From a virus (lineage: Duplodnaviria > Heunggongvirae > Uroviricota > Caudoviricetes), in the IMG/VR virus record IMGVR_UViG_2541047842_000006: a DNA stretch of 47,623 bases; one strand, written 5' to 3'. Numbering within the stretch: position 1 is the stretch's first letter; each line of letters starts with the position of its first letter. The position numbers and the translations under genes are program-made. This document shows positions 3,308 through 47,623 of this stretch, piece by piece. The notes beneath the pieces are model-generated. The model saw only the letters and a program-made list of their open reading frames with translations, had not been told where the DNA came from and ran no database searches.

Positions 3308-3883
3308 CTACGGCAGTGCTGGCCATTCAATATCCTGTGCAGTTGACGTATCAACACGGTTCAGCAATACCCGATACTTTTTCCATGCTTCCAGCAACGA
3401 GATTTCTTCCTCCGTTGCAATTTCCAGATCTGCAGCATCCTGAAGCGGCGCAATATGCTCACTGGCTACCTGCATCAGGTTGTTTTTTGTTTCTTCCGCC
3501 TCCCGGATCCGGAACAGTTTTTCTGCTTCCGTATCCTTCACCCAGGCTGTGCCGTTCCACTTCTGAAACTCCCCTTCCGGGGATAACCAGGTGACATTTT
3601 CCGGTAATGGGCCAAGTTCAGAAATAAATAACGCGTCGCCGGAAGCCACGTCATAGACGGTTTTACCCCGATGATCTTCAACGAGATGCCACGATGCCTC
3701 ATCACTGTTGAAAACAGCCACGAAGCCAGCCGGAATATCTGGCGGTGCAATATCGGTACTGTTTGCTGGCAGACCTGTATGAGGCGGAATATATGCGTCA
3801 CCTTCACCAATAAATTCATTAGTTCCTGCCAGCAGATTATAAATTTTTATGGTCCGTGGTTGTTCACTCATTCTGAATGCCAT
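3308..3883 (-). CDS. tail fibre assembly protein (Tfa)
   Basis: 191 aa; start overlaps stf stop by 1 nt; recalled similarity to lambda/e14 Tfa. Confidence 0.8.
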
Positions 3884-6804
3884 TATGCAAGCCTCACAAT
3901 GTAGTTAAATGCGATGTTTTTGACAGTGTTTTCCGCGTTACCAGCAGCGTTAACGGTGATGGTGTGTCCATGTGAGCCAATCGCAACAGAGTGCGTATGA
4001 GCACCAATACCGACAGTATGTGCGTGAGCACCTGCAGATGCAGCTGTGCCGCTGACACTATGAGTGTGCGCTCCTGCAGCACTTGTATTCACACTGGCCG
4101 CAGACACTACCTTATGTACTGACCCATTTTGTGACCACTGGCTGACTGCTGATGCGCCTGTGACACTATGAGTATGGTTTCCGGCACTTGCGGCTGTACC
4201 GCTCACACTGTGCGTATGCGCCCCGGTGTTATTCGTGGATTTAGTGCCGTAATCAAACGACGATGTGGTTTTCGTCCCCAAATCCGTACTGGATGCACTG
4301 GCGCTGTGGGTGTGCGATTTAATGCCGTCCTGTTCCTGAGACAATACGGCCCGACCACTGGCAGGTTTGCCCTTAATCGTCCAGCCACGCATATCAGGGA
4401 TCACGCCTGACGGATAAGCGGTTGCAAGTTTCGGGTAAGCGGATTTGTCAAAAGTCTGCCCCTGCATCAGGGCATAACCAGACGGAACGGTATCTGATGG
4501 CCACGGGATTGGTGCGCCAGGCGGATAAAACTGCTCTGATGGCGTATAGAGTGAATAAACTGTACCGTCCGTTAACCCTTCCGGCTTATTAGCAGAATAT
4601 GCTGGTGACGTATGAATAGTCACGCTGGCATTACTGGTATAATCCCATTGAATATTTACACCAGTCGCATAATTTCCGATTGCAACGTAAATATCGTAAG
4701 TATCACCAGATGTATTGACCCAGGCAAAATTTGTAAACCCTGTCGATGTGCGCTGCCATAAAGCACCAGTAATCCCCTTCGGATTACCATTACCTGCACG
4801 CAAAACAAGTTCAGATATACCTGCCTGTTGAGGTGACCCCACGTTAAATCCCGCGCCACCAATCAACGTAATTGAAACAACAGAACTCGCCTGTGGCATG
4901 GTTACCGTTGCTAATTTGAACCAACCAGCACCACCGCTGAATGACATTGTTGTTGAGTTAAGCGTACCAATATCTTTCGGCGTCAGTGTTATATCCGCTG
5001 AAAGCGCCTTACCATTCACCTTACGGGCAGAAGGTACCCGACCATTCGCATTATCATTAGCTGCTTTCACTGCTTTCGGTGTCGCGGCAAGCGTTTCAGA
5101 TGCGCTGTTGGTTGCACTACTGAGCTGGACAATTCCTTTTTGTGCTGTCGTAGCGTCCTGAGCAGTATATTTCCCGTTAGCAAGGTCATAGGCTGCCTTT
5201 ACCGACTTTGGCGTTGCCGCCAGCATTTCAGATGTGCTGTTGGTCGCGCTGCTGAGCTGAACTATCCCTTTTTGTGCTGTCGTTGCATCCTGTGCGGTGT
5301 ATTTCCCGTTAGCCAGCTCATACGCGGCCTTAACGGCTTTTGGCGTTGCCGCCAGTGACTCGGAAGTGCTGTTAGTCGCACTGCTGAGCTGTACTATCCC
5401 CTTTTTCGTCGTGCTCGCATCCTCAAGCGCCACGGCGGATGCAATATCCTCTGCCCGTTTTGCCGCTGTCTCGGCGCGCGTTGCCGCGGATTCCGCCGTA
5501 CTTTTGCTCTGAGCTGCCGCCGTCGCACTGCCAGCTGCCTCTGTCGCCTTCGTGGATGCCGTCGTGGCGCTGCCCTTTGCTGCTGACGCCTGTCTGGTCG
5601 CCTCATCTTTTGAAGCAGACGCAGATGATGCCGATGACGCCGCCGAACTGGCGGACGATGCGGCAGCCGTTTTTGAGGATTCTGCGCTGGTTTCCGACGC
5701 TTTCGCGTTCGTCTCGGATGTCTTCGCTGCGGAAGCAGACCTCGCTGCTGCGCTGGCCTGTTCAGTGGCTTCGCCAGCCTTCGTTGTGGCTGTTGAAGCG
5801 GACGATGCGGCGCTTTCTGCCGATTTTCCGGCAGCGGTGGCACTGGCTGAGGCCTGCCCGGCACTTGTTGACGCGGCACTGGCAGACGACGCAGCCGCTG
5901 TTTTTGAGCCTGCCGCAGCTGAGGCGCTCTGTCCCGCTGCCGTCTCAGAAGACCTGGCGTTCGTCTCGGACGTTTTTGCCGCCTTCGCGGAATTTGCTGC
6001 CGCCGTTGCCGAGGAAGCTGCGCTACTGGCGCTCGAGGATGCGTTCGTTTCTGATGATTTTGCCGCCTCTTTTGAAGCCGACGCATCCCGGGCTGAGGTG
6101 GCAGCTTCTGACGCTTTCGTGGTCGCGGTGGATGCAGAAGTGGCGGCTGATTGTTGTGACGCTGCAGCATTCGTTTCTGACGTTTTCGCGGCAGCGGCAC
6201 TGGTAGCTGCCGCGCTTTTTGAGGACTCTGCAGCGGCAGCACTTTTTTCCGCTTCAGTGGCCTTTGTTGATGCCGTTCCTGCGCTGGAAGACGCTGACTG
6301 AGCCGACGAAGCGGCCTGTCCGGCTGACGTGCTGGCTGCACGTGCTGAATCTGCAGCATCAGTCGCATGGGTTGCCGCCTCACGGGCAGATGTGCCGGCA
6401 TCACTGGCTGACTTCTTCGCGGCTGCCGTGTTCTGTGCCACCACGGACGCGTTACGCGCCACCTCTTCCACCATCTGTTCAAAACGGCGCAGTGCCTCCG
6501 GACGGGCATCATCCTCCGTCATGGCACCGAGAAAATCATTCAGCGTACCGGGTTGAGAATCTTCATACACGGTGATGGTCCCGGCATGTGACGGCGGGAA
6601 TCCTTCCACCAACAGAATAACGCTGTACTGCCCGTACTCAACGTCCATGCTGTAACGCCCGGCTTCATCCGGATTTTCTGAGGCCAGCGTGTTCACCACC
6701 ACCGTGGTGCTGTTACGTTTTGCTTTCAGCTGGATTGTGCAGTTCTGTACCGGTTTTCCTGTGCCGTCTTTCAGTACACCTGAAATCTTTACTGCCATAT
6801 TCAC
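3883..6804 (-). CDS. stf: side tail fibre protein (Stf), long variant
   Basis: 973 aa; N-terminus ([26 protein letters not shown]...) and C-terminus (GAPIPWPSD...[31 protein letters not shown]) match recalled lambda Stf; long Ala/Ser/Thr-rich central region; likely start at second Met (6798). Confidence 0.9.
5008..5403 (-). repeat. three tandem ~132-bp coding repeats inside stf (44-aa unit [39 protein letters not shown])
   Basis: near-identical DNA units at about 5272..5403, 5140..5271 and 5008..5139; third copy diverges at its end. Confidence 0.8.
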
Positions 6805-23260: not shown

Positions 23261-25353
23261 CCTCCGGAAGTCAGCCAGGGGTTAACATCGTCAGTTACTG
23301 TTTTCTTCCGTTTTTGTTTTTTAACAGGCGTGGATACCGGTTCCGGTGTGGGTGACGGTTCGGTACTGTCCGGGACACACTCCAGCCAGGTTTCCCGGCT
23401 CGCCCACTCCGGTGCATCCGGCCAGCGGATCTTTTCGTATCCATGCAGAATGACCAGAGCCTCGGCATACACCATCAGGTCAAAAGCTTCGTTGGCACCG
23501 CGACCCGGCTTACTCCATTTCCCGTCACTGCTCCGCTCTTCATACGTCAGTTCGTCGTAAAACCAGCTCCCCAGCCAGTCAGGGAAATGCACATAGCCGG
23601 GACCTGGCGAGTCACGCCATAACGCGTTATTCACCCGGTCTTTCAGGGCATCCGTCTGAAGAAGCCAGAGCGGCACATCACCTGCGGCCTGCGCCCGGCG
23701 GCCCGTTCGTCCGGTGTTATCAGGGAATGTACGGCTGATCAGTTTTGCGCGCCGGATGCTGTCACCCTTAAACAGGTAAATACGTTTACCAAGGCCATCA
23801 CGACGGCAACGACGCCAGAATTTATAGGCATTATCAGTGACCCCGTCTTCACCGCCGGAGTCCACCGCCATTGCCATCAGTCGCATTTGTTGAGAAGGAT
23901 CGGAGGCCAGCGGCCAGCTTTTATGAAAAACATCCGTCAGCAGGACATCCCAGTCTTCCGGATAGCTGGCCGGATCAATTCGCTGGCTCTCCCCGTCGCT
24001 GTCACCGCGCAATGACTGCGTGATGTTGTAACGATCAATAATCCAGCGTTCGCCACGGCTGCCATAGCCCGTTACCTGAACCACAAAACGGCGATGACGT
24101 CCCGCCTGCACATCCACTGTCGCCACAAGGAAATTAACGCCATCCGGCACACTGCGGGAAGGAACTGGCTCTGCCCGCTGCTCAAGCAATTCACTTTTTC
24201 GTTGCTCCATGCTGGCGCGGGGAAGATAAGGTAATCCCCAGTCGGTATTGATAACCGTCTTGAGTGTCTCTTCACTTCCGGTTGTCTCGTATTCCTGTTC
24301 TGCAGTAAGCAGTTTGTAAACGAGTTGCGAGAGTGTCTGATAAGCAGCTGCCGGACCCTCCATCCAGAATGACGCAATACGTGAACGCCGGGGATCACCA
24401 TAACGACTGCCATCTGCATTGATGGATTCACCATCCCGTAACCAGACCCCACGTCCGTTCAGCTCGCGTTTTTGTTCAGGCAAAATCCGTCCTGAACAGG
24501 AAGGACACTGAATATAAGCCGCCTCACTTGCCAGCACAGGATCGGCAATATCACGGAAACCAGCAACCACATCGCCGCAGGGCTGAAAATACTCACCACA
24601 GTGTGGACAGGGCCAGTACCAGCGACGGCGATCGCCACGGTTATAGAGCGACAGGATCCCCGTGGTTGGTGGAGCCTCATGCGGTGAAGTCCGTCGCCAT
24701 TTCACATCCTTCACATCCCTGCCGGGGGAACTCTCCACCAGCGTCATACCACTGGACATAAATGTGGTGGTACGTTTTGAGGCAAGAGAGAAGGCATCCC
24801 CCTCACCATCAATATCTTCCGGAAAACGGTCATAATCCGTCAGCGCCACGCATTTATAATCTGATGAAGACATGATATTGACTGACGGCCAGCCGATTTT
24901 CAGGTAGTTGCCAGCAAGGAATGTTCTGTCATAAACGTTGTTGTCATTTTTGTTCGGACTCAGGCGACTGACCACTTCCGGGCTGACGCGAAACGTTCTG
25001 GCGAGTCGTTTTTTGGAGTGTTCGCGGGCTTTTTCCTCCGTCATCTGAATGATCAGCATATCAGCAGGATCGCAAATCACGTTGTAAATCACCCAGCCGT
25101 CAATCAGGCCGATAGTCTTGCCGGTTCGTGCCGGGCCAACAAATATCACTGCGTCGTATTCACGCGAGGCCAGGCAGTTCATAGGCTCAATAACATACGG
25201 TGCCACCAGCGGATCCCACGGGACTGAGTTCCCTGCCCCCATAGGCACCCGCATATACTGAGCAACGGCATCAGCAACCCGCATTCGTCTCGGTGCGCGA
25301 AGGATATAACCTGAATCGGTTCGTGCTGCCTTTGCGGTTTCCTGATTCAGCAT
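23251..25353 (-). CDS. terminase large subunit (GpA family)
   Basis: 700 aa; Walker A-like VGPARTGKT, Cys cluster (CPHCGEYFQPCG...CPSCSGR); start overlaps small-terminase stop. Confidence 0.9.
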   Translation of the reverse strand: MLNQETAKAARTDSGYILRAPRRMRVADAVAQYMRVPMGAGNSVPWDPLVAPYVIEPMNCLASREYDAVIFVGPARTGKTIGLIDGWVIYNVICDPADMLIIQMTEEKAREHSKKRLARTFRVSPEVVSRLSPNKNDNNVYDRTFLAGNYLKIGWPSVNIMSSSDYKCVALTDYDRFPEDIDGEGDAFSLASKRTTTFMSSGMTLVESSPGRDVKDVKWRRTSPHEAPPTTGILSLYNRGDRRRWYWPCPHCGEYFQPCGDVVAGFRDIADPVLASEAAYIQCPSCSGRILPEQKRELNGRGVWLRDGESINADGSRYGDPRRSRIASFWMEGPAAAYQTLSQLVYKLLTAEQEYETTGSEETLKTVINTDWGLPYLPRASMEQRKSELLEQRAEPVPSRSVPDGVNFLVATVDVQAGRHRRFVVQVTGYGSRGERWIIDRYNITQSLRGDSDGESQRIDPASYPEDWDVLLTDVFHKSWPLASDPSQQMRLMAMAVDSGGEDGVTDNAYKFWRRCRRDGLGKRIYLFKGDSIRRAKLISRTFPDNTGRTGRRAQAAGDVPLWLLQTDALKDRVNNALWRDSPGPGYVHFPDWLGSWFYDELTYEERSSDGKWSKPGRGANEAFDLMVYAEALVILHGYEKIRWPDAPEWASRETWLECVPDSTEPSPTPEPVSTPVKKQKRKKTVTDDVNPWLTSGGWL

Positions 25354-28363: not shown

Positions 28364-29558
<1,195 letters not shown>

Positions 29559-30100
29559 TTAGGTCCGTTCTCAATACCAAATTCAACTTCCTGATTCTCA
29601 GTTAATGTTTTGAAATCGTTGCTCTGAATTGCTGAGAAATGGACAAACACATCTTTGCTGCCATCTTTCGGCGTGATGAAACCAAAACCTTTTTCAGGGT
29701 TAAACCATTTCACTAAACCAGTCATTTTGTTAGACATAATTATTACCTTTTGAAGAAATTAGCCCTTGGGCAGAATGGTCCGAAAAAAAATATCAGAGAG
29801 AAAAACCAACAAGGAAATCTCAAGAGGTACAAATAATAAAATTATAACAATGACTGCTTCAGATAAATTTGTAACAAACCAGAACACCATTAACGCATGA
29901 TTAACCACCCATAGCAAGGATTACTTTTGTAAAGAAAAACACAGCAATGAAAGAATAGCTTTATTTATTAATAATAACGTGTCATTCTGATTAAGACCTT
30001 TTATCTTACCCTTAAGATTTCAGGAATTTTGGCTCATGGAAGAGTCCTTTTTATTTAAATTTTACATTCCGCGATGTAAATGTTCCGATTTAATATTACC

Positions 30101-32128: not shown

Positions 32129-32409
32129 GAGATTGTGGTGCTTTTTGTGGGAGTCATCCACTTACGCACTTTGTTTTGCCATGCCAGCAGTTAGCTTCTG
32201 CTGTAAAACTATTCATGCAGCAAACCTGCACTTCACCACAATGGTTAGCATACTTTTCCTGATTAAGATTTTGCCAAATATGCTAGCCATTGTTTCATGT
32301 ATTGGACCTCCTTACTTTTTATTAAAGAGATCCAATATTCACTACTCTGTCCGTATCTCTACTCAGGCATCAGCCTTCTTCGTTATCGTATACAGACGAG
32401 CGATGAATT

Positions 32410-32625
32410 TTAATCAGTAATGATGACATTTGCTGCTGCAGGACCTTTAGCACCACTCTCTATAGAGAAGGTAACCTTTTGACCTTCAAATAAGGTTCGA
32501 TAATTATCATTCTGAATCGCAGAAAAATGCACAAACACATCTTTACTACCATCAACAGGAGAAATAAAGCCGAAACCTTTATCAGCGTTAAACCATTTTA
32601 CTAAACCAGTCATTTTATTTGACAT
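32410..32625 (-). CDS. cspB: cold shock protein CspB
   Basis: 71 aa, [38 protein letters not shown]... with RNP1/RNP2 motifs. Confidence 0.9.
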
Positions 32626-32925
32626 TCTACATTCCTTAACTTGAGCCTTTCGGCATAAATGGTTTGCATAACAGAAACGACTTCGTACTTAATTGGAGAG
32701 ACTCAAAGAAGGAATAAGTGAATAACACCTGAAATGAGAACTGCTTTAGTAAACTACTTCGTATATCGTCTGTTCTTCAAACCGACGCAATCATTAACGC
32801 ATAGTTGAACATATGAAGCAATGTTTATTTTAGACATCCAGCCATCTTCAACCCCATCAAAAAACTATAGCTTTCTTCAGGAACGTGTGTATAGTGCGCC
32901 AAGTTATCAGTATTAAGGAATTTTT

Positions 32926-36189: not shown

Positions 36190-36345
36190 TTACTCCTCAG
36201 GTTCGTAAGCTGTGAAGACAGCGACCTCCGTCTGGCCGGTTCGGATTCGTACCTCGCAGAGGTCTTTCCTCGTTACCAGTGCCGTCACTATGACGGTTAA
36301 ACAGATGACGATCAGGGCGATTAACATCGCCTTTTGCTGCTTCAT
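36190..36345 (-). CDS. hokD: Hok-family membrane toxin (HokD/RelF-like)
   Basis: 51 aa MKQQKAMLIALIVICLTVIVTALVTRKDLCEVRIRTGQTEVAVFTAYEPEE; longer overlapping frame is mok-like. Confidence 0.85.
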   Translation of the reverse strand: MKQQKAMLIALIVICLTVIVTALVTRKDLCEVRIRTGQTEVAVFTAYEPEE

Positions 36346-37019
36346 AGCCTGCTTCTCCTTGCCTTTCGGCTCGTAAGAGGCTAACCTACATGTGTCTAGC
36401 ATGAAATTGGCCTCAGATTAATGTTAAGCGTCTTGCAGGACGCGTAATGTTAACTGGGGCTTTTCTCTATCTGCCTTTGGTGTTCATGCCCGAGGCAGAT
36501 AGCCTCAAGCACCCGCAGCCATTCTACTTAACTACCGTTACCTCGCCAATATGAAATCAGTCAGAAAGGCGATCCATAAGAACAATAGCAAGACAATAAA
36601 TCGCCATTACAGCCGTAATAGCCAGCGCACATTTGAGAACCAGCACCACAACCTCCTGTATTGGACGTAGACCAGTCCTGATGAATATGAGGCTGTCTCG
36701 TCAGTGATTCAATACAACTATTGGGTATAGTTTCTCTGATTTTTTCTGTGGAAATGGGGCACAACCACTAGTCACCACCAGCACTTCTTTTAATACGCAA
36801 AGTCCGACACAAGCTAACCTTCTAGTCCGCTTTGAGCGAAAAACAGCCATAATTTAGTGCCACGTATATAATGATAGAGCTATTCAAGCTAGCAATTCAC
36901 ATGTAAAAATTCAGAGGGTAGAAGCACATAGTTATAAATGTTGGCTCCATCGACAAATTGCGGTCTCAAGTACATTTATTAATGTTGCCCCCGCATTAAC
37001 AAATCATCAAGGTGACGAC

Positions 37020-38807
37020 ATGGACGATATTAATATCAGCCTCGACGAACTTAACACTATTGATTTATCCCCCTTAATCCAGAGTAAGCTGCCAGTTACC
37101 TGCTTTGATATCACAAAGTATCTTTCTAGCCTAGGTGATGGAAGAGCGGAGATAAGACTGCTAACCCATATTTGCGGTTTTCACTTTCGTCCCGAAAATC
37201 CACAGGTACCATTTGGTCCGTGCTTTCAAAGCAGCCAAGGTAGATCTGCAATTCCGGATGACATTAACGGGTTGTCGCTGGAGGTACTTTCTCAATTTTG
37301 CCCGACGATAGAGCTACCCGAACTTCAAGCTCGTATTGCTGATACACTTTGGGTTCGTAAAATTGGTGGAATCCGTTTTCCTTTGCTGGCAGTCCGTGCT
37401 TATTATGCGTCCAGTATAGCTATTATGACATCGCAAGGGACGTGGGTTAGTGCTTTAGAACGCCTAGAGCGTGCGCTTAGGCTGTGTTGTTTTTTTCGAA
37501 AGAATACTGATTTCAGGGATGAATTTGATCAGCTTTCGGCACATCTACTAGCAGAGTATGAACGTACCAGAGAACAAGGCGATTCACCTTATCCGCTGCG
37601 ACTCCTGCAACTCGATATCGACTGTAAAGTGAGTGAGCCATCTTTTATTGCCCAGGAACTCCTGTTTCTGACAAAAAACTATCTGGCTCAAAAATTATTT
37701 TCATTTGCCGTCGATGCCTGTAAAACCGCAATCACGATTGCGAATAGGTGCTGTGACAGAGATACACAGTTTGAATTCTGGCGGCTTCTTGCCGATACAC
37801 ATCTGGAAGAGTCAAAATTCCAAGATGGCGGTATGATTTCGGCAGCCTGCATGCAGAATGCTATTGAAGCACTGGCTAATATTCCAGGAACCCGAATAGA
37901 ACGTCTTGCGCTGTATGAAGAAATGCGTGATTACCAAATCGAATCCCGTCACCAGATGTCTATCCTTCAGTCTCCCCCTCAAGATATTAGTGAGATTGTC
38001 CATCAAGCCAAGAGTCGGGTAGTCGGAAGAGATATGTTTGATATGGTTTTCAGACTTGCGATGCTGGTCTGTCGGCCAACCAGCATTGAGAGACTTAAGG
38101 CTCAAGCAATAGAACAAAAGGCCAACAGCATAGCTTGGATGTTTGGATCAACACATATTGATCATGAGGGAATGACACTTGCTCGCATACCCGCAGGATT
38201 GGGGATTGATGATGCAAATGGGGCAGTTATTTGGCCCATAATGATGACGAGAATGCGTATCGACCATGAGTTGGCAGTAGCTGGGCAAATTATTCCTGCT
38301 ACAGATGAGATCACAATGAAATATCCAATCTCGGAGGCGTTTTTTCGCGATATGTTCATCAATCATCCCTTCATCCCGTTTGGGCATGAAGAGTTTTTCA
38401 TCAAGGGTATGGTTTGCGGTTTCAATGGAGATTTTATGACGGCATGCCACGTGTTGATTCCCCAGATCGAAAATAGTCTGAGATATGTGGCTAAAATTAA
38501 AGGTGAGGAACCATCGCAGCTTCACGGGGACGGTTCGCAAGAGCGAAATGGACTCAAGGGATTACTAGATAATCCACTGATTATTGAAGCTTTCGGCGTA
38601 GACATAATTGGCAATCTTCAGGCCTTACTGGTAGATAAAATCTATGGTGATTTACGAAATCAACTAGCTCACGGATATGTGCCTGCCGGTTACTACAATC
38701 AACCTCCCTGCATTTTTGCATGGTGGCTTGTATTGCACATTCTAATGAACCCTACGGCGAGATACTGGCAAGCCACTTATGGCCAAGAGAGTGAGGCTCA
38801 GACTTAA
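37020..38807 (+). CDS. orphan 595-aa protein with C-terminal RNxxxH (HEPN-like) motif; candidate abortive-infection/defence protein
   Basis: long ORF with good RBS (AAGGTGACGACATG), opposite strand to neighbours, AT-richer than flanks; C-terminal ...GDLRNQLAHGY fits the HEPN R-x4-H signature; no Walker or other recognised motif. Confidence 0.55.
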   Translation: MDDINISLDELNTIDLSPLIQSKLPVTCFDITKYLSSLGDGRAEIRLLTHICGFHFRPENPQVPFGPCFQSSQGRSAIPDDINGLSLEVLSQFCPTIELPELQARIADTLWVRKIGGIRFPLLAVRAYYASSIAIMTSQGTWVSALERLERALRLCCFFRKNTDFRDEFDQLSAHLLAEYERTREQGDSPYPLRLLQLDIDCKVSEPSFIAQELLFLTKNYLAQKLFSFAVDACKTAITIANRCCDRDTQFEFWRLLADTHLEESKFQDGGMISAACMQNAIEALANIPGTRIERLALYEEMRDYQIESRHQMSILQSPPQDISEIVHQAKSRVVGRDMFDMVFRLAMLVCRPTSIERLKAQAIEQKANSIAWMFGSTHIDHEGMTLARIPAGLGIDDANGAVIWPIMMTRMRIDHELAVAGQIIPATDEITMKYPISEAFFRDMFINHPFIPFGHEEFFIKGMVCGFNGDFMTACHVLIPQIENSLRYVAKIKGEEPSQLHGDGSQERNGLKGLLDNPLIIEAFGVDIIGNLQALLVDKIYGDLRNQLAHGYVPAGYYNQPPCIFAWWLVLHILMNPTARYWQATYGQESEAQT

Positions 38808-41823: not shown

Positions 41824-41979
41824 ATGGATACTATCGATCTTGGCAACAACGAATCTCTGGTGTACGGCGTGTTTCCAAACCAGGACGGCACGTTCACCGC
41901 AATGACGTATACCAAAAGCAAAACGTTTAAAACCGAAAATGGTGCCCGTCGCTGGCTGGAAAGAAACTCAGGTGAGTGA
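41824..41979 (+). CDS. small protein YdfA-like
   Basis: 51 aa from MDTIDLGNNESLVYGVFPNQDGTFTAMTYTKSKTFKTENGARRWL...; RBS GAGGT upstream. Confidence 0.6.
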   Translation: MDTIDLGNNESLVYGVFPNQDGTFTAMTYTKSKTFKTENGARRWLERNSGE

Positions 41980-41980
41980 T

Positions 41981-42556
41981 ATGGATTTCGACACAATCAT
42001 GGAAAAGGCTTACGAAGAATACTTCGAAGGCCTTGCCGAAGGCGAAGAAGCTCTCAGCTTCAGTGAGTTTAAACAGGCACTCAGAATAAGAATGCGCTCT
42101 CACAATGACGCGGAGCACAAATATGAGAAGCAAAATCAGACCGCAGAAAATTTTGTTCTGGAACCCGGAGAAACGCTTTTCAAAATTCCCGTTACGTGCC
42201 CCATTTGCGGTTTTACATCAGAAGAACTTGACGACTCCTGTAACAATCAGGAAACAACCAAGTATGTCGAAGATGATACCGAGTGCGCACGAAGAACGAT
42301 TATATCCACGAGTCCAAACTCCAGGACCAATAAATCTCACTTTGAGAGGGTGATTAATCCACTCCCCCAAACCAATAAAAAAGATGCCGGAGGACAAAAA
42401 AACCAATGGAACAACGGGATATCTGTCAAAAAAAGACGTTCCATTAAAGACAAACAACGCAGCGCCAACAACTGTAAGCGCTTTATACCAGTAATCAATT
42501 TTCATGTTCTTAAGCGGATTTATTGGTGGTTGCGACATTGCTTAATGAATCCTTAA
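41981..42556 (+). CDS. YdfB/YdfC-like protein, single 191-aa reading frame with CPICG motif
   Basis: start overlaps ydfA stop (TGATATG); N-terminus MDFDTIMEKAYEEYFEGLAEGEEALSFSEFKQALRIRMRSHND. Confidence 0.5.
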   Translation: MDFDTIMEKAYEEYFEGLAEGEEALSFSEFKQALRIRMRSHNDAEHKYEKQNQTAENFVLEPGETLFKIPVTCPICGFTSEELDDSCNNQETTKYVEDDTECARRTIISTSPNSRTNKSHFERVINPLPQTNKKDAGGQKNQWNNGISVKKRRSIKDKQRSANNCKRFIPVINFHVLKRIYWWLRHCLMNP

Positions 42557-42815
42557 AACTGTGGTGATTTTAAGGATACCACCTCGCCTGACGTGGTTAA
42601 AAGCAGGCACACAACACGAAAGCGCACGGCGAAGTTCGTCTCACTGTACGGTGTCGTCAAATTTAATTCGACCGTGCGCTTCCGGTTGTGGCAACCCGCG
42701 AAATGGCGCGGCGGTAAGTATGGCGGGGTTATTCCTTCCCCGTTGAGGACACCGAGTTGTCAGGTTGACCATACGCTTAAGCGACAACCCCGCTGCAACG
42801 CCCTCTGTTATCAAT

Positions 42816-42873
42816 TTTCTGGTGACGTTTGGCGGTATCAGTTTTACTCCGTGACTGCTCTGCCGCCGTTTTT
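42816..42873 (+). ncRNA. dicF: DicF antisense sRNA (cell-division inhibitor, targets ftsZ mRNA)
   Basis: TTTCTGGTGACGTTTGGCGGTATCAGTTTTACTCCGTGACTGCTCTGCCGCC then TTTTT matches recalled DicF; between ydfB/C and dicB as in K-12. Confidence 0.8.
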
Positions 42874-43042: not shown

Positions 43043-43231
43043 ATGAAAACGTTATTACCAAACGTTAATACGTCTGAAGGTTGTTTTGAAATTGGTGTCA
43101 CTATCAGTAACCCTGTATTTACTGAAGATGCCATTAACAAGAGAAAACAAGAACGGGAGCTATTAAATAAAATATGCATTGTTTCAATGCTGGCTCGTTT
43201 ACGTCTGATGCCAAAAGGATGTGCACAATGA
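43043..43231 (+). CDS. dicB: cell division inhibitor DicB
   Basis: 62 aa MKTLLPNVNTSEGCFEIGVTISNPVFTEDAINKRKQERELLNKICIVSMLARLRLMPKGCAQ. Confidence 0.9.
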   Translation: MKTLLPNVNTSEGCFEIGVTISNPVFTEDAINKRKQERELLNKICIVSMLARLRLMPKGCAQ

Positions 43232-43419
43232 ATTCAGCATTTGCGCTTGTTCTGACAGTTTTTCTTGTTTCCGGAGAGCCAGTTGATATTGCAGTCAGTG
43301 TTCACAGGACAATGCAGGAGTGTATGACTGCAGCAACCGAACAGAAAATTCCCGGTAACTGTTACCCGGTCGATAAAGTTATTCACCAGTATAATATCGA
43401 AATCCCGGCAGGTCTTTAA
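43228..43419 (+). CDS. ydfD: small lysis/membrane protein YdfD
   Basis: 63 aa MNSAFALVLTVFLVSGEPVDIAVSVHRTMQECMTAATEQ...; start overlaps dicB stop (ATGA). Confidence 0.85.
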   Translation: MNSAFALVLTVFLVSGEPVDIAVSVHRTMQECMTAATEQKIPGNCYPVDKVIHQYNIEIPAGL

Positions 43420-43512
43420 AACAGTTCCGTAATAAATATCCGGTTTCATTCTTATATGCCAGCAATGGCAGGGATTTGTTCATCCTTAAATCTGTCATGA
43501 GGTTAAAACAAA

Positions 43513-45984
43513 ATGAGTAAAGTCTTTATTTGCGCCGCTATTCCTGACGAACTGGCAACAAGGGAAGAAGGCGCTGTGGCTGTAGCCACAGCCATTGAAG
43601 CTGGCGACGAACGCCGTGCTCGAGCAAAATTTCACTGGCAATTCCTGGAACATTATCCGGCTGCTCAGGACTGCGCTTATAAATTTATTGTCTGCGAGGA
43701 TAAACCTGGCATACCCCGCCCTGCCCTCGATTCATGGGATGCTGAATATATGCAGGAAAACCGCTGGGATGAGGAGTCTGCTTCTTTTGTCCCGGTTGAG
43801 ACTGAATCCGATCCGATGAACGTCACTTTTGACAAGCTGGCCCCTGAAGTACAGAACGCTGTCATGGTTAAGTTCGACACATGTGAAAACATCACCGTTG
43901 ATATGGTTATTAGCGCACAGGAATTGTTGCAGGAAGACATGGCAACATTCGACGGACATATCGTTGAAGCGTTGATGAAAATGCCAGAAGTTAACGCCAT
44001 GTATCCGGAGCTTAAGTTGCACGCCATTGGGTGGGTTAAGCATAAATGTATTCCTGGTGCTAAATGGCCCGAAATTCAGGCAGAGATGCGCATCTGGAAA
44101 AAACGTCGCGAAGGTGAACGCAAGGAAACCGGAAAATACACGTCTGTTGTTGATCTCGCCCGCGCCAGAGCCAATCAACAGTACACTGAAAATTCAACAG
44201 GAAAAATCAGCCCGGTCATTGCTGCCATTCATCGCGAATACAAGCAGACATGGAAAACACTGGATGACGAACTGGCCTACGCTCTCTGGCCTGGTGATGT
44301 GGATGCCGGAAACATTGACGGCAGCATCCATCGCTGGGCAAAAAATGAAGTTATCGATAACGACCGCGAAGACTGGAAGCGTATCTCGGCATCAATGCGC
44401 AAACAGCCTGATGCCCTTCGCTACGACCGCCAAACTATTTTTGGCCTTGTCCGTGAACGTCCGATCGACATTCACAAAGATCCCGTAGCACTGAACAAAT
44501 ATATCTGCGAATACCTGACGACAAAGGGCGTGTTTGAGAATGAAGAAACAGACCTGGGCACTGTTGATGTTCTCCAGTCATCAGAAACACAAACTGATGC
44601 AGTGGAAACTGAGGTATCTGATATCCCAAAAAATGAAACCGCGCCGGAAGCTGAACCATCTGTAGAGCGTGAGGGGCCGTTCTATTTCCTCTTCGCAGAT
44701 AAGGACGGAGAAAAATACGGTCGCGCAAACAAACTTTCTGGTCTGGATAAGGCACTGGCTGCTGGCGCCACTGAAATCACAAAAGAAGAATATTTTGCCC
44801 GAAAAAATGGCACATACACGGGCTTACCGCAAAATGTAGATACCGCTGAAGATTCAGAACAACCAGAGCCGATAAAAGTTACCGCTGACGAAGTAAACAA
44901 AATTATGCAGGCAGCCAATATCATCCAGCCTGACGCCGATAAGTTGCTTGCTGCATCACGTGGTGAATTTGTTGAAGGGATTAGTGACCCGAATGATCCG
45001 AAATGGGTTAAGGGGATCCAGACCCGCGATTCTGTGAACCAGAACCAGCATGAATCGGAACGGAACTACCAAAAAGCGGAACAAAACAGCCCAAATGCGT
45101 TACAAAACGAGCCAGAAACGAAACAGCCTGAATCAGTGGCGCAACAGGAAGTGGAAAAAGTCTGCACCGCCTGCGGTCAGACCGGCGGCGGCAACTGCCC
45201 TGATTGTGGCGCGGTAATGGGCGACGCAACATACCAGGAAACATTCGATGAAGAGTATCAGGTTGAAGTTCAGGAAGATGATCCGGAGAAAATGGAAGGC
45301 GCTGAACATCCACACAAGGAGAACACTGGCGGCAATCAGCATCACGATAGCGATAATGAAACTGGCGAGACGGCAGATCACTCAATTAAGGTGAACGGTC
45401 ATCACGAAATCACATCCACCAGCAGGACGTGTGACCATCTAATGATCGACCTTGAAACCATGGGAAAAAATCCTGATGCCCCGATCATCTCAATAGGTGC
45501 AATATTTTTCGATCCGCAAACCGGAGATATGGGACCGGAATTTATTAAGACTATCGATCTGGAAACTGCTGGCGGAGTCATTGATCGGGACACCATTAAA
45601 TGGTGGTTTAAGCAATCACGCGAAGCGCAATCTGCCATTATGACCGATGAAATCCCGTTAGATGATGCACTGTTACAATTGCGGGAATTTATCGACGAAA
45701 ACTCCGGTGAATTTTTTGTTCAGGTCTGGGGAAATGGAGCCAACTTCGACAACACGATTTTGCGCCGTTCATACGAACGGCAGGGGATCCCCTGCCCGTG
45801 GCGTTACTACAACGATCGCGATGTACGCACAATCGTTGAGCTGGGGAAAGCCATAGACTTCGATGCCAGAACGGCTATTCAATTCGAAGGTGAGCGCCAT
45901 AATGCACTTGATGACGCCCGTTACCAGGCAAAATACGTTTCAGTTATCTGGCAAAAACTGATCCCGAGTCAGGCTGATTCTTAA
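43513..45984 (+). CDS. large YdfE-like protein with C-terminal DnaQ-like (DEDDh) 3'-5' exonuclease domain
   Basis: 823 aa; C-terminal motifs MIDLETMG (Exo I), VWGNGANFD (Exo II), HNALDDARY (Exo III); central CTACGQTGGGNCPDCG zinc ribbon. Confidence 0.7.
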   Translation: MSKVFICAAIPDELATREEGAVAVATAIEAGDERRARAKFHWQFLEHYPAAQDCAYKFIVCEDKPGIPRPALDSWDAEYMQENRWDEESASFVPVETESDPMNVTFDKLAPEVQNAVMVKFDTCENITVDMVISAQELLQEDMATFDGHIVEALMKMPEVNAMYPELKLHAIGWVKHKCIPGAKWPEIQAEMRIWKKRREGERKETGKYTSVVDLARARANQQYTENSTGKISPVIAAIHREYKQTWKTLDDELAYALWPGDVDAGNIDGSIHRWAKNEVIDNDREDWKRISASMRKQPDALRYDRQTIFGLVRERPIDIHKDPVALNKYICEYLTTKGVFENEETDLGTVDVLQSSETQTDAVETEVSDIPKNETAPEAEPSVEREGPFYFLFADKDGEKYGRANKLSGLDKALAAGATEITKEEYFARKNGTYTGLPQNVDTAEDSEQPEPIKVTADEVNKIMQAANIIQPDADKLLAASRGEFVEGISDPNDPKWVKGIQTRDSVNQNQHESERNYQKAEQNSPNALQNEPETKQPESVAQQEVEKVCTACGQTGGGNCPDCGAVMGDATYQETFDEEYQVEVQEDDPEKMEGAEHPHKENTGGNQHHDSDNETGETADHSIKVNGHHEITSTSRTCDHLMIDLETMGKNPDAPIISIGAIFFDPQTGDMGPEFIKTIDLETAGGVIDRDTIKWWFKQSREAQSAIMTDEIPLDDALLQLREFIDENSGEFFVQVWGNGANFDNTILRRSYERQGIPCPWRYYNDRDVRTIVELGKAIDFDARTAIQFEGERHNALDDARYQAKYVSVIWQKLIPSQADS

Positions 45985-46056
45985 TGTTCAACTGTCGCCG
46001 GTTGTGACTGGTATTCTGCAACCGGCGCTCGTCTAATATAAGAGATAAAGAAATCG

Positions 46057-46308
46057 ATGAGCGAAGTAATCATGATTGTCTCTCCCGGCAAATGGGTATC
46101 CGAAGAGCAGTTAATTGCGCTGAAAGGAATAAAAAAAGGTACGTTAAAAAAGGCCCGGGAAAAATCGTTTATGGAAGGAAGGGAATATAAGCATGTCGCT
46201 CATGACGGTATGCCATGGGATAACAGTCCATGCTTTTACAACCTGGAAGAAATTGATCGCTGGATTGAGCGCCAGGCATCAGCAAGACCAAGACGTCATC
46301 TTACTTGA
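46057..46308 (+). CDS. excisionase-like protein
   Basis: 83-aa ORF immediately upstream of integrase; small basic DNA-binding-type protein. Confidence 0.6.
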   Translation: MSEVIMIVSPGKWVSEEQLIALKGIKKGTLKKAREKSFMEGREYKHVAHDGMPWDNSPCFYNLEEIDRWIERQASARPRRHLT

Positions 46309-46327
46309 CTAAAAGCCACACTAACTA

Positions 46328-47623
46328 ATGAGAGAAGTTGAAATGAAATATCCGACAGGCGTGGAAAACCATGGAGGGAAATTACGTATCTGGTTTGTTT
46401 ATAAAGGCGTAAGAGTCAGGGAAAACCTGGGGGTTCCTGACACAGCAAAAAACAGGCGCGTTGCAGGTGAGCTACGCGCCTCTGTTTGTTACGCAATAAA
46501 AACTGGTGTTTTCGACTATGCAAAACAGTTTCCCTCCTCACGCAATCTGGAAAAATTTGGTGAGGCCCGACAAGATTTAACCATAAAAGAACTGGCTGAA
46601 AAATTTCTGGCACTGAAAGAAACTGAAGTCGCAAAAACATCACTCAACACATACCGTGCCGTCATCAAAAATATCCTGAGCATAATCGGTGAAAAAAATC
46701 TTGCCTCATCGATTAATAAAGAAAAATTACTGGAGGTTCGTAAAGAGCTACTGACTGGATACCAGATCCCCAAAAGTAACTATATTGTTACACAACCAGG
46801 GAGATCGGCTGTAACTGTAAATAATTACATGACAAATCTTAACGCCGTGTTCCAGTTTGGTGTTGATAACGGTTACCTGGTAGATAACCCGTTTAAGGGG
46901 ATCTCGCCATTAAAGGAATCAAGAACCATTCCGGATCCTCTTTCGCGGGAGGAATTCATCCGTCTTATCGATGCGTGCAGAAATCAGCAAGCCAAAAATT
47001 TATGGTGTGTTTCTGTTTATACTGGCGTTCGCCCTGGTGAGCTGTGTGCACTTGGATGGGAGGACATAGATCTGAAAAATGGAACAATGATGATCAGGAG
47101 AAATTTAGCAAAAGACCGTTTCACGGTACCAAAAACACAGGCGGGAACCAATCGGGTCATTCATCTTATTAAGCCAGCAATCGACGCTCTCCGGAGTCAG
47201 ATGACATTAACGAGACTGAGCAAAGAGCATATCATTGATGTTCACCTCAGAGAGTATGGCAGAACAGAAAAACAAAAATGCACCTTTGTTTTTCAACCTG
47301 AAGTGTCAGCGAGAGTAAAAAATTATGGTGACCATTTTACCGTTGACTCAATAAGGCAGATGTGGGACGCAGCGATAAAACGTGCCGGACTCCGCCATCG
47401 AAAATCATATCAGTCGAGACATACTTATGCCTGCTGGTCGCTGACAGCTGGTGCTAACCCGGCATTTATAGCAAACCAGATGGGCCATGCAGATGCGCAA
47501 ATGGTATTTCAGGTATACGGAAAATGGATGTCTGAAAACAATAATGCACAGGTAGCTTTGTTAAATACACAGTTAAGCGAGTTTGCCCCAACCATGCCCC
47601 ATAACGAAGCAATGAAAAATTAA
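46328..47623 (+). CDS. tyrosine recombinase/phage integrase
   Basis: 431 aa; C-terminal catalytic region with conserved R...H..R...Y context (SRHTYACWSL, GHADAQMVFQVYGKW); stop codon is the last triplet of the window. Confidence 0.9.
   Translation: MREVEMKYPTGVENHGGKLRIWFVYKGVRVRENLGVPDTAKNRRVAGELRASVCYAIKTGVFDYAKQFPSSRNLEKFGEARQDLTIKELAEKFLALKETEVAKTSLNTYRAVIKNILSIIGEKNLASSINKEKLLEVRKELLTGYQIPKSNYIVTQPGRSAVTVNNYMTNLNAVFQFGVDNGYLVDNPFKGISPLKESRTIPDPLSREEFIRLIDACRNQQAKNLWCVSVYTGVRPGELCALGWEDIDLKNGTMMIRRNLAKDRFTVPKTQAGTNRVIHLIKPAIDALRSQMTLTRLSKEHIIDVHLREYGRTEKQKCTFVFQPEVSARVKNYGDHFTVDSIRQMWDAAIKRAGLRHRKSYQSRHTYACWSLTAGANPAFIANQMGHADAQMVFQVYGKWMSENNNAQVALLNTQLSEFAPTMPHNEAMKN

Follow-up and report, generated by a model that had tools for sequence, protein, structure and literature searches.

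The closest described relatives of the gene considered here are recE of the Rac prophage and dexA of phage T4. RecE is encoded late in the early-left operon of Rac, between a kil-type gene and xis-int, a position equivalent to that of the gene considered here. In Escherichia coli K-12, the protein has a PF06630 (Exonuc_VIII) domain at residues 2–178 and a PD-(D/E)XK nuclease domain (DUF3799), of 5'-3' polarity, at residues 615–850. T4 DexA is a stand-alone DEDDh exonuclease of 227 residues. A third point of reference is phage Tritos, the listed prototype for Rec modules of the 'nuclease only' kind among Chi-rich lambdoid phages (Genome Research 2025, Table 1, class B). The same article describes DnaQ-type nucleases near int as a class and states that their role is unknown; its main text gives no domain make-up for the Tritos nuclease. 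Here, we analyse ydfE, located at positions 43513–45984 (+ strand) of the viral record IMGVR_UViG_2541047842_000006 (47,623 nucleotides in total; hereafter 'the window'). The ydfE product is already known; it is annotated by RefSeq, PHROG and Pfam and is extremely common. Our analysis adds that the protein is a module mosaic of RecE. We assign a probability of roughly 0.6 to the reading that ydfE encodes an exonuclease acting on DNA 3' ends early in lytic growth, in a Chi-rich phage lacking an annealase, a role suggested by context.

The ydfE coding sequence starts with ATG, preceded 11 nucleotides upstream by GAGG, and specifies 823 amino acids followed by a stop codon. The product is 100% identical to RefSeq WP_000048333.1, which the Prokaryotic Genome Annotation Pipeline (PGAP) names 'exonuclease', and residues 1–822 match PHROG 2082 (also 'exonuclease'). 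The protein has four parts. From the N-terminus, these are two YdfE-type domains, a central region homologous to RecE, a long linker that is acidic and disordered, and a DEDDh domain at the C-terminus. An earlier, sequence-only reading of the window had noted an open reading frame (ORF) of this length and position in the dicB operon, with an acidic N-terminal part, a Cys-rich ribbon and three DnaQ-like motifs near the C-terminus. All of these were borne out by the analyses below. The same reading had left the role of the protein open, which is still correct. Missing from it were the prior annotation and abundance of the protein, the RecE homology of the middle third, and the exchange of a PD-(D/E)XK domain for a DEDDh domain with loss of recT.

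The C-terminal domain comprises residues 641–823 (45433–45981, + strand) and belongs to the DexA/Rv2179c-like DEDDh exonucleases. A Pfam search assigned residues 642–813 to family PF16473 (Rv2179c-like) with E=1.6e-66 and 223.8 bits, against a cut-off of 27; this assignment is far beyond chance. The three motifs are DLETMG (residues 646–651), WGNGANFD (739–746) and HNALDDA (796–802). We aligned the domain with T4 DexA and stand-alone phage homologues. The Exo I D-x-E pair, D646 and E648 in DLETMG, aligned with DexA D7 and E9. The Exo II aspartate, D746 in WGNGANFD, aligned with DexA D119. The Exo III H-x4-D element, which defines the 'h' subtype, corresponds to H796 and D801 in HNALDDA and to H186 and D191 of DexA. 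All five catalytic residues were invariant. Hence, the C-terminus holds a complete DEDDh active site, for which polarity (3'-5') and substrate are predicted from homology.

An AlphaFold2 model of the protein was built using an alignment of 34 sequences. Over residues 641–820, the predicted local distance difference test score (pLDDT) was mostly about 75–93. The best Foldseek matches to this region were DexA, RNase T and oligoribonuclease (Orn), with target TM-scores of 0.6–0.7, and the fold is RNase H-like. The closest solved structure is that of T4 DexA (PDB 8KEL; profile E=3e-15, Foldseek E=5.5e-9), and a sequence search of the PDB retrieved DexA alone, not Rv2179c itself. DexA shares the fold and all five catalytic residues with the ydfE domain. 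Conversely, the two are only 27% identical, DexA has extra loops and the ydfE protein has a 640-residue N-terminal extension. Closer in sequence are the stand-alone DnaQ-type nucleases encoded in the early-left operons of the lambdoid phages ST64B (Sb30), g341c (gp29) and epsilon34, which are 55–57% identical to residues 641–823 (55% for the g341c protein). These proteins are about 180–190 residues long and, unlike the ydfE product, have no RecE/YdfE scaffold. The ST64B gene lies directly before xis-int. The g341c gene lies within a Rec module, between erf-ssb and abc2.

The first 640 residues are acidic, with an isoelectric point of 4.67 and 19% Asp plus Glu. AlphaFold2 predicted confident domains at residues 1–205, 245–345 and 385–435, in addition to the nuclease, and disorder at residues 346–383, 439–457 and 502–637. 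The N-terminal domain (residues 1–205; 43513–44127, + strand) consists of a small alpha/beta unit, covering approximately residues 1–95, followed by a helical bundle. This is probably the Pfam domain YdfE_N (PF27430). The helical domain at residues 245–345 (44245–44547, + strand; pLDDT ~94) is probably YdfE_C (PF27432), with inferred boundaries. Both families are newer than the Pfam copy that we used. Hence, they were assigned from precomputed records of homologues, 83–100% identical to residues 1–341, rather than by direct scoring. A small beta-hairpin/helix domain (residues 385–435; 44665–44817, + strand; pLDDT 90–96) lies between disordered acidic linkers. Neither the PDB nor BFVD yielded an informative structural relative of the N-terminal fold. 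The scaffold belongs to a narrow family; a query with residues 1–640 recovered 245 relatives among 1.84 billion representative proteins.

Homology to RecE begins within the 245–345 domain, weakly, at RecE residue 278. In a BLASTP comparison with K-12 RecE, residues 262–625 aligned with RecE 278–591 (2e-61). Similarly, positions 271–602 of the NCBIfam RecE model (NF007259) aligned with residues 246–625; the score was 281 bits, against an equivalog cut-off of 1269, and only the central part of the model was matched. Similarity is greatest for a module spanning residues 466–625 (44908–45387, + strand), which is 70% identical to residues 446–591 of Rac RecE. At the DNA level, nucleotides 1425–1867 of the gene (window 44937–45379) are 78% identical to recE and the similarity then stops. 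The shared module ends where the RecE C-terminal nuclease region starts. In K-12 RecE, the PD-(D/E)XK domain lies just past the end of the homology; in the ydfE protein, the DEDDh domain takes that place. Pfam scans of the ydfE product detected neither DUF3799 nor PF06630.

The ydfE protein contains the elements that mark the central region of RecE: a GISDPNDPKW motif, a Cys ribbon and an acidic tail. The first of these lies within RGEFVEGISDPNDPKW (residues 483–498; 44959–45006, + strand), the best-conserved element of the RecE/YdfE scaffold family. In an alignment of the scaffold the Gly and Trp are invariant and I-S-D-P-x-D-x-K is nearly so. The motif occurs in most relatives and is retained whichever nuclease is attached. 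It falls in a partly disordered stretch, and the peptide looks like a docking motif for a partner. Used as a search pattern, the conserved motif recovered about 570 viral loci. The four-Cys, zinc-ribbon-like motif CTACGQTGGGNCPDC (C551-x2-C554-x7-C562-x2-C565; 45163–45207, + strand) is shared with RecE residues 517–531. It is confined to a subset of the family, is absent from many relatives and was modelled with low confidence by AlphaFold2.

Module combinations were classified using segment-wise phmmer searches. All four pairings of N- and C-terminus were found. Thus, a YdfE-type N-terminus is joined to a DEDDh domain (the window protein and P0241) or a PD-(D/E)XK domain (P0251, P0317 and P0349), and a RecE-type N-terminus is likewise joined to DEDDh (P0248, P0261 and P0367) or PD-(D/E)XK (P0363 and P0263). 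Further forms have a C-terminus with no Pfam nuclease match that instead resembles other PHROG families. In one such set, a third scaffold variant (PHROG 2489; locus L172 at 4001–6717, P0249, P0256, P0274, P0289, P0304 and P0309) carries a C-terminal module of PHROG 7838 (labelled 'exonuclease') without a Pfam match; downstream of the gene in L172 lies a member of the Sipho_Gp157 family. The C-terminus of P0246 matches PHROG 26058, labelled function unknown. Natural recombinants join recE and ydfE-type genes inside the shared region. One such chimera was found in a Rac-like prophage with kilR-ydaE upstream (L004; GCA_039763085.1, 6001–8418). Here, the gene follows K-12 recE for 1772 nucleotides and then switches to a DEDDh end of the Qin type; the prophage lacks recT and ralR, and the gene is directly followed by xis and int. 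The stretch shared by the two proteins, residues 466–625, is the site where N- and C-terminal modules recombine.

The type of nuclease is linked to the presence of recT. We used the conserved motif to fetch 160 IMG/VR loci and classified them by nuclease type. The PD-(D/E)XK domain was present in 68 loci, and a RecT-family gene lay immediately downstream in all 66 with enough downstream DNA. The downstream genes were of the K-12 type (43 loci) or of a 350/367-residue type (23 loci), confirmed as PF03837. Conversely, no RecT-family ORF was found in any of the 85 DEDDh-type loci, in a search made for RecT and not for Red-beta, Erf or Sak. The same is true of the 47.6-kb window, where no RecT-family ORF was detected in a search that used no dedicated models for Red-beta, Erf, Sak, SSB or Gam/Abc2. 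Between ydfE and xis, neither recT nor any other gene was evident from the ORF list or PGAP annotation. Taken together, the comparisons show a DEDDh nuclease (3'-5') in place of the PD-(D/E)XK nuclease (5'-3') of RecE, with recT lost alongside it.

The window is rich in Chi sites (GCTGGTGG). There are 9, compared to an expectation of 1.5, and none of 100 shuffled sequences reached this number. The sites are at positions 24735, 25203, 30703, 34685, 34737, 35270, 35327, 36775 and 45416, the last being inside the exonuclease gene. They are divided 7:2 between the strands, with 7 on the − strand, equivalent to the top strand of the lambda map. This pattern fits the Tritos class. The Tritos protein is 98.8% identical to the window protein over residues 1–640, and its coding sequence is also 2472 nucleotides long. 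As in the window, the Tritos operon reads cI-ydfABC-DicF-dicB-ydfD-exonuclease-xis-int and the genome is Chi-rich. All early-left genes of the window were accounted for by Pfam and the PGAP annotation of an identical locus. Nothing of substance separates the two; the window carries this kind of phage in prophage form. The apparent absence of an annealase partner, judged from the search for the RecT family, and of a Rec module, together with the many Chi sites, therefore argues against an Exo/annealase recombinase.

We propose the following role for ydfE. Lifting of a DicA/CI-type repressor would allow expression of the exonuclease along with DicF, DicB and YdfD. The C-terminal domain would trim free 3'-OH ends by two-metal catalysis involving D646, E648, D746 and D801, with H796 acting as the general base. 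DNA would be the most probable substrate, in the form of single-stranded 3' tails or of linear ends. Residues 1–640 may form a scaffold that is independent of the attached nuclease and that places the enzyme on the same partner or DNA structure as the N-terminal region of RecE. The outcome would be DNA 3'-end processing during lytic growth of a phage relying on host RecBCD and RecA.

Several considerations weigh against this proposal. Exonucleases of 3'-5' polarity usually antagonise recombination by removing 3' tails, according to the Genome Research 2025 article. A pro-recombination role is not obvious for this reason. The polarity, substrate and role suggested for the ydfE product all derive from homology and context, and PF16473 is named after an exoribonuclease. 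The contrast in recT linkage involves few lineages, with 6 DEDDh clusters and 4 others at 90% identity, and the annealase search covered the RecT family rather than Red-beta, Erf or Sak. In addition, protection against T4 has been reported for EcD, a stand-alone homologue from E. coli (Kang et al., 2025).

The genes surrounding ydfE are those of an early-left (dicB) operon. Upstream on the same strand are the DicF small RNA (42817–42868, +; Rfam RF00039, 72.5 bits), dicB (62 codons; 43043–43231, +; Pfam DicB, E=9.6e-40) and ydfD (63 codons, DUF1482; 43228–43419, +). Both dicB and ydfD were assigned by Pfam and by the PGAP annotation of an identical locus. A scan of the DNA upstream of ydfE identified no σ70-like promoter on the + strand; a weak terminator-like hairpin was found at 43457–43470 in the same scan. 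As the last gene of the operon, ydfE is followed directly by xis (excisionase; 46057–46308, +; Pfam DUF1233, E=1.6e-31, and PGAP) and then by int (integrase; 46328–47623, +; ORF list and PGAP), which reaches the end of the window. Just past the ydfE stop codon, a GC-rich inverted repeat with the arms GTCGCCGGTTG and CAACCGGCGC (45995–46030, +) precedes xis; this may be a transcript-end or processing hairpin. In complete genomes, the end of int is the right prophage end and adjoins rspB. Overall, the window corresponds to a lambdoid prophage, and its ydfE is 100% identical to the copy in E. coli 118UI, where the locus also adjoins rspB, on the Qin attachment side. The gene is the intact ydfE of a Qin/Tritos-type lambdoid prophage.

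In the K-12 literature, ydfE is described as a pseudogene within the DicA-repressed dicB transcript. The sequence-only reading took K-12 ydfE to be short, truncated and followed by insertion sequence remnants, and suggested that the window may hold the intact form. Alignment bore out both points. The K-12 gene matches nucleotides 1–767 of window ydfE at 100% identity, with the breakpoint at 44279/44280 (+), and continues into an IS2 transposase remnant and then an N-terminally truncated integrase gene. Direct alignment places window positions 44280–46463 in DNA missing from K-12. This 2.2 kb comprises the 3' 1.7 kb of ydfE, xis and the 5' end of int. The ORF and the K-12 pseudogene occupy the same chromosomal locus, beside rspB, and the former is the intact counterpart of the latter. 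Another candidate for a fragment of the family in K-12, the exoD pseudogene of prophage DLP12, proved not to be homologous.

Matches to ydfE were found in 4800 of 5426 complete E. coli genomes, at a median of 2 places per genome, and covered at least 80% of the gene in 3537 of the 5426. A closed ORF of 823 codons was present in 56 viral loci. The protein is also encoded by the viable phages HannyBb, PhiR42_1, Tritos, Evi, mEp460_ev081 and PPompW. The operon of the window recurs in Tritos and mEp460. The ratio of non-synonymous to synonymous substitution (dN/dS) was about 0.09–0.10 for residues 1–345, 0.33–0.40 for the linker region and 0.12–0.34 for the DEDDh domain. Hence, the N-terminal domains are under strong purifying selection and are the most constrained part of the protein. 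With dN/dS values far below 1 throughout the folded parts, ydfE is kept intact by selection.

Elsewhere in the window, a 595-residue protein (37020–38807, +) contains DUF7380 and DUF4209 and matches the PADLOC candidate defence system PDC-S39 (E=8e-103). Its gene lies between hok/sok and the replication genes, where Qin of K-12 has relBE, ydfV and flxA, and is likely to be a defence moron. The sok antitoxin RNA was identified by Rfam at 36340–36514 (−), and hokD is annotated there in the identical 118UI locus. At 41939–42556 (+) is an ORF of 205 codons (191 according to PGAP). The first ~34 residues of the product are shared with K-12 YdfB; the remainder contains a CPICG-type Cys motif and has no Pfam or PADLOC match. 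Window positions 42082–42598 have no counterpart in K-12, which there has the end of ydfB and ydfC. This makes the ydfB/ydfC region a mosaic that differs from strain to strain. Rfam also reported two cspA-thermoregulator matches (29510–29883 and 32394–32786, −), indicating cold-shock-protein leaders within the prophage, and an IS009 RNA (3342–3540, −) near the tail-fibre end.

The features described above could be read in other ways. A broader proposal, which we consider possible but hold only tentatively, is that the N-terminal region of RecE and YdfE is a portable targeting scaffold able to carry any nuclease, with GISDPNDPKW as its docking motif, and that the DEDDh form cooperates with host RecBCD. 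Such a scaffold would deliver whatever nuclease is fused to it, be it PD-(D/E)XK with RecT, DEDDh without RecT or another type, to a common partner at DNA ends. In Chi-rich phages lacking an annealase and Gam, the DEDDh form would then trim 3' tails, for example for loading of RecBCD.

It is rather unlikely, in our view, that ydfE is an anti-phage defence gene of the prophage, encoding an 'HREX'-type exonuclease that attacks DNA of T-even phages modified with 5-hydroxymethylcytosine (5hmC), as EcD does. EcD belongs to the same DexA-like family. When plasmid-borne, it digests T4 DNA and protects against T4 (Kang et al., 2025, NAR). Table S3 of that study lists 3196 bacterial DexA homologues, including WP_000048333.1, and K-12 is said to have none, consistent with truncation of ydfE. 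DicB, encoded in the same operon, is already linked to phage resistance. However, EcD is a different, stand-alone protein; the published primers encode the termini MIDTET... and ...TIPETYD*. A scan of viral contigs with 23-mers from these primers gave no match, and none of the stand-alone homologues that we retrieved begins MIDTET. The residues by which that study defines the 5hmC-specific dimer state are also unmatched in the ydfE product. Thus, W152 of DexA, proposed to act in 5hmC recognition with D169, is replaced by Y766; D169 is replaced by A780, less certainly because the column falls in a gapped loop. DexA D90, a tetramer-forming residue that is Ala in EcD, is retained as D718. Furthermore, PADLOC returned no match for the exonuclease. 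Unlike typical defence morons, ydfE belongs to a repressor-controlled early-left operon, and no promoter-like site specific to it was detected on the + strand. A role in defence would also leave the 640-residue RecE-like scaffold unexplained.

The naming of PF16473 raises the alternative that the ydfE product is an exoribonuclease like Rv2179c that trims RNA 3' ends, for instance those of phage or host transcripts or of small RNAs such as DicF. ydfE and DicF share a transcript, from which DicF is matured. The top-scoring Pfam family bears the name 3'-5' exoribonuclease Rv2179c-like, PGAP gives many fragments of the protein the name 3'-5' exoribonuclease, and RNase T and oligoribonuclease are the next fold matches after DexA. 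We nevertheless regard this function as distinctly unlikely. The sole solved relative found by sequence is DexA, a DNA exonuclease, and the scaffold is common to RecE, which also acts on DNA. The stand-alone homologue of g341c is embedded in a DNA recombination module (erf-ssb-abc2). Even RNase T acts on DNA as well, according to the titles of structure entries.

That ydfE is a decaying, functionless remnant of defective prophages is very unlikely. K-12 has lost most of the gene without obvious cost, and many database entries, mostly partial ones from E. coli, are fragments. Most of these 'partial' entries are flagged as such by their source and lie on short contigs, which suggests that they were cut by contig ends. 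The frequency of near-complete copies in E. coli genomes and of closed ORFs in viral loci, the low dN/dS of the folded parts, the invariant catalytic residues and the presence of the gene in plaque-forming phages all contradict a pseudogene. Finally, it is scarcely credible that the protein is a true RecE (exonuclease VIII) making 3' tails for an annealase, as the label 'exodeoxyribonuclease VIII' in phage records and the partial match to the RecE model might imply, since that match falls far short of the cut-off and is confined to the centre of the model, the PD-(D/E)XK domain and PF06630 N-terminus are both absent, no RecT-family gene was found in the window or the 85 DEDDh-type loci, and a DEDDh enzyme would have the opposite polarity; the annotation is contradicted by the domain content.

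Processing of DNA 3' ends early in lytic growth thus remains the role that we favour for the ydfE product. Approximately two-thirds of the complete genomes of E. coli have the gene, many of them more than once, as do several viable lambdoid phages. The phage records OV696610 (Tritos), PV340562 and LR597641/2 label the protein 'exonuclease VIII, ds DNA exonuclease'. Without a PD-(D/E)XK domain in the protein, such a name misleads, and the domain make-up described here corrects a frequent misannotation. The comparison with EcD also cautions against counting the fusion protein as an 'HREX' defence enzyme. If the DEDDh form does cooperate with RecBCD, recombination-dependent concatemers would be formed by a different route. 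In nature, one scaffold carries either a 5'-3' nuclease accompanied by RecT or a 3'-5' nuclease alone, which provides a ready-made comparison. This could reveal the role of the N-terminal 600 residues of RecE, and how DNA ends are handled by phages that have no Rec module.

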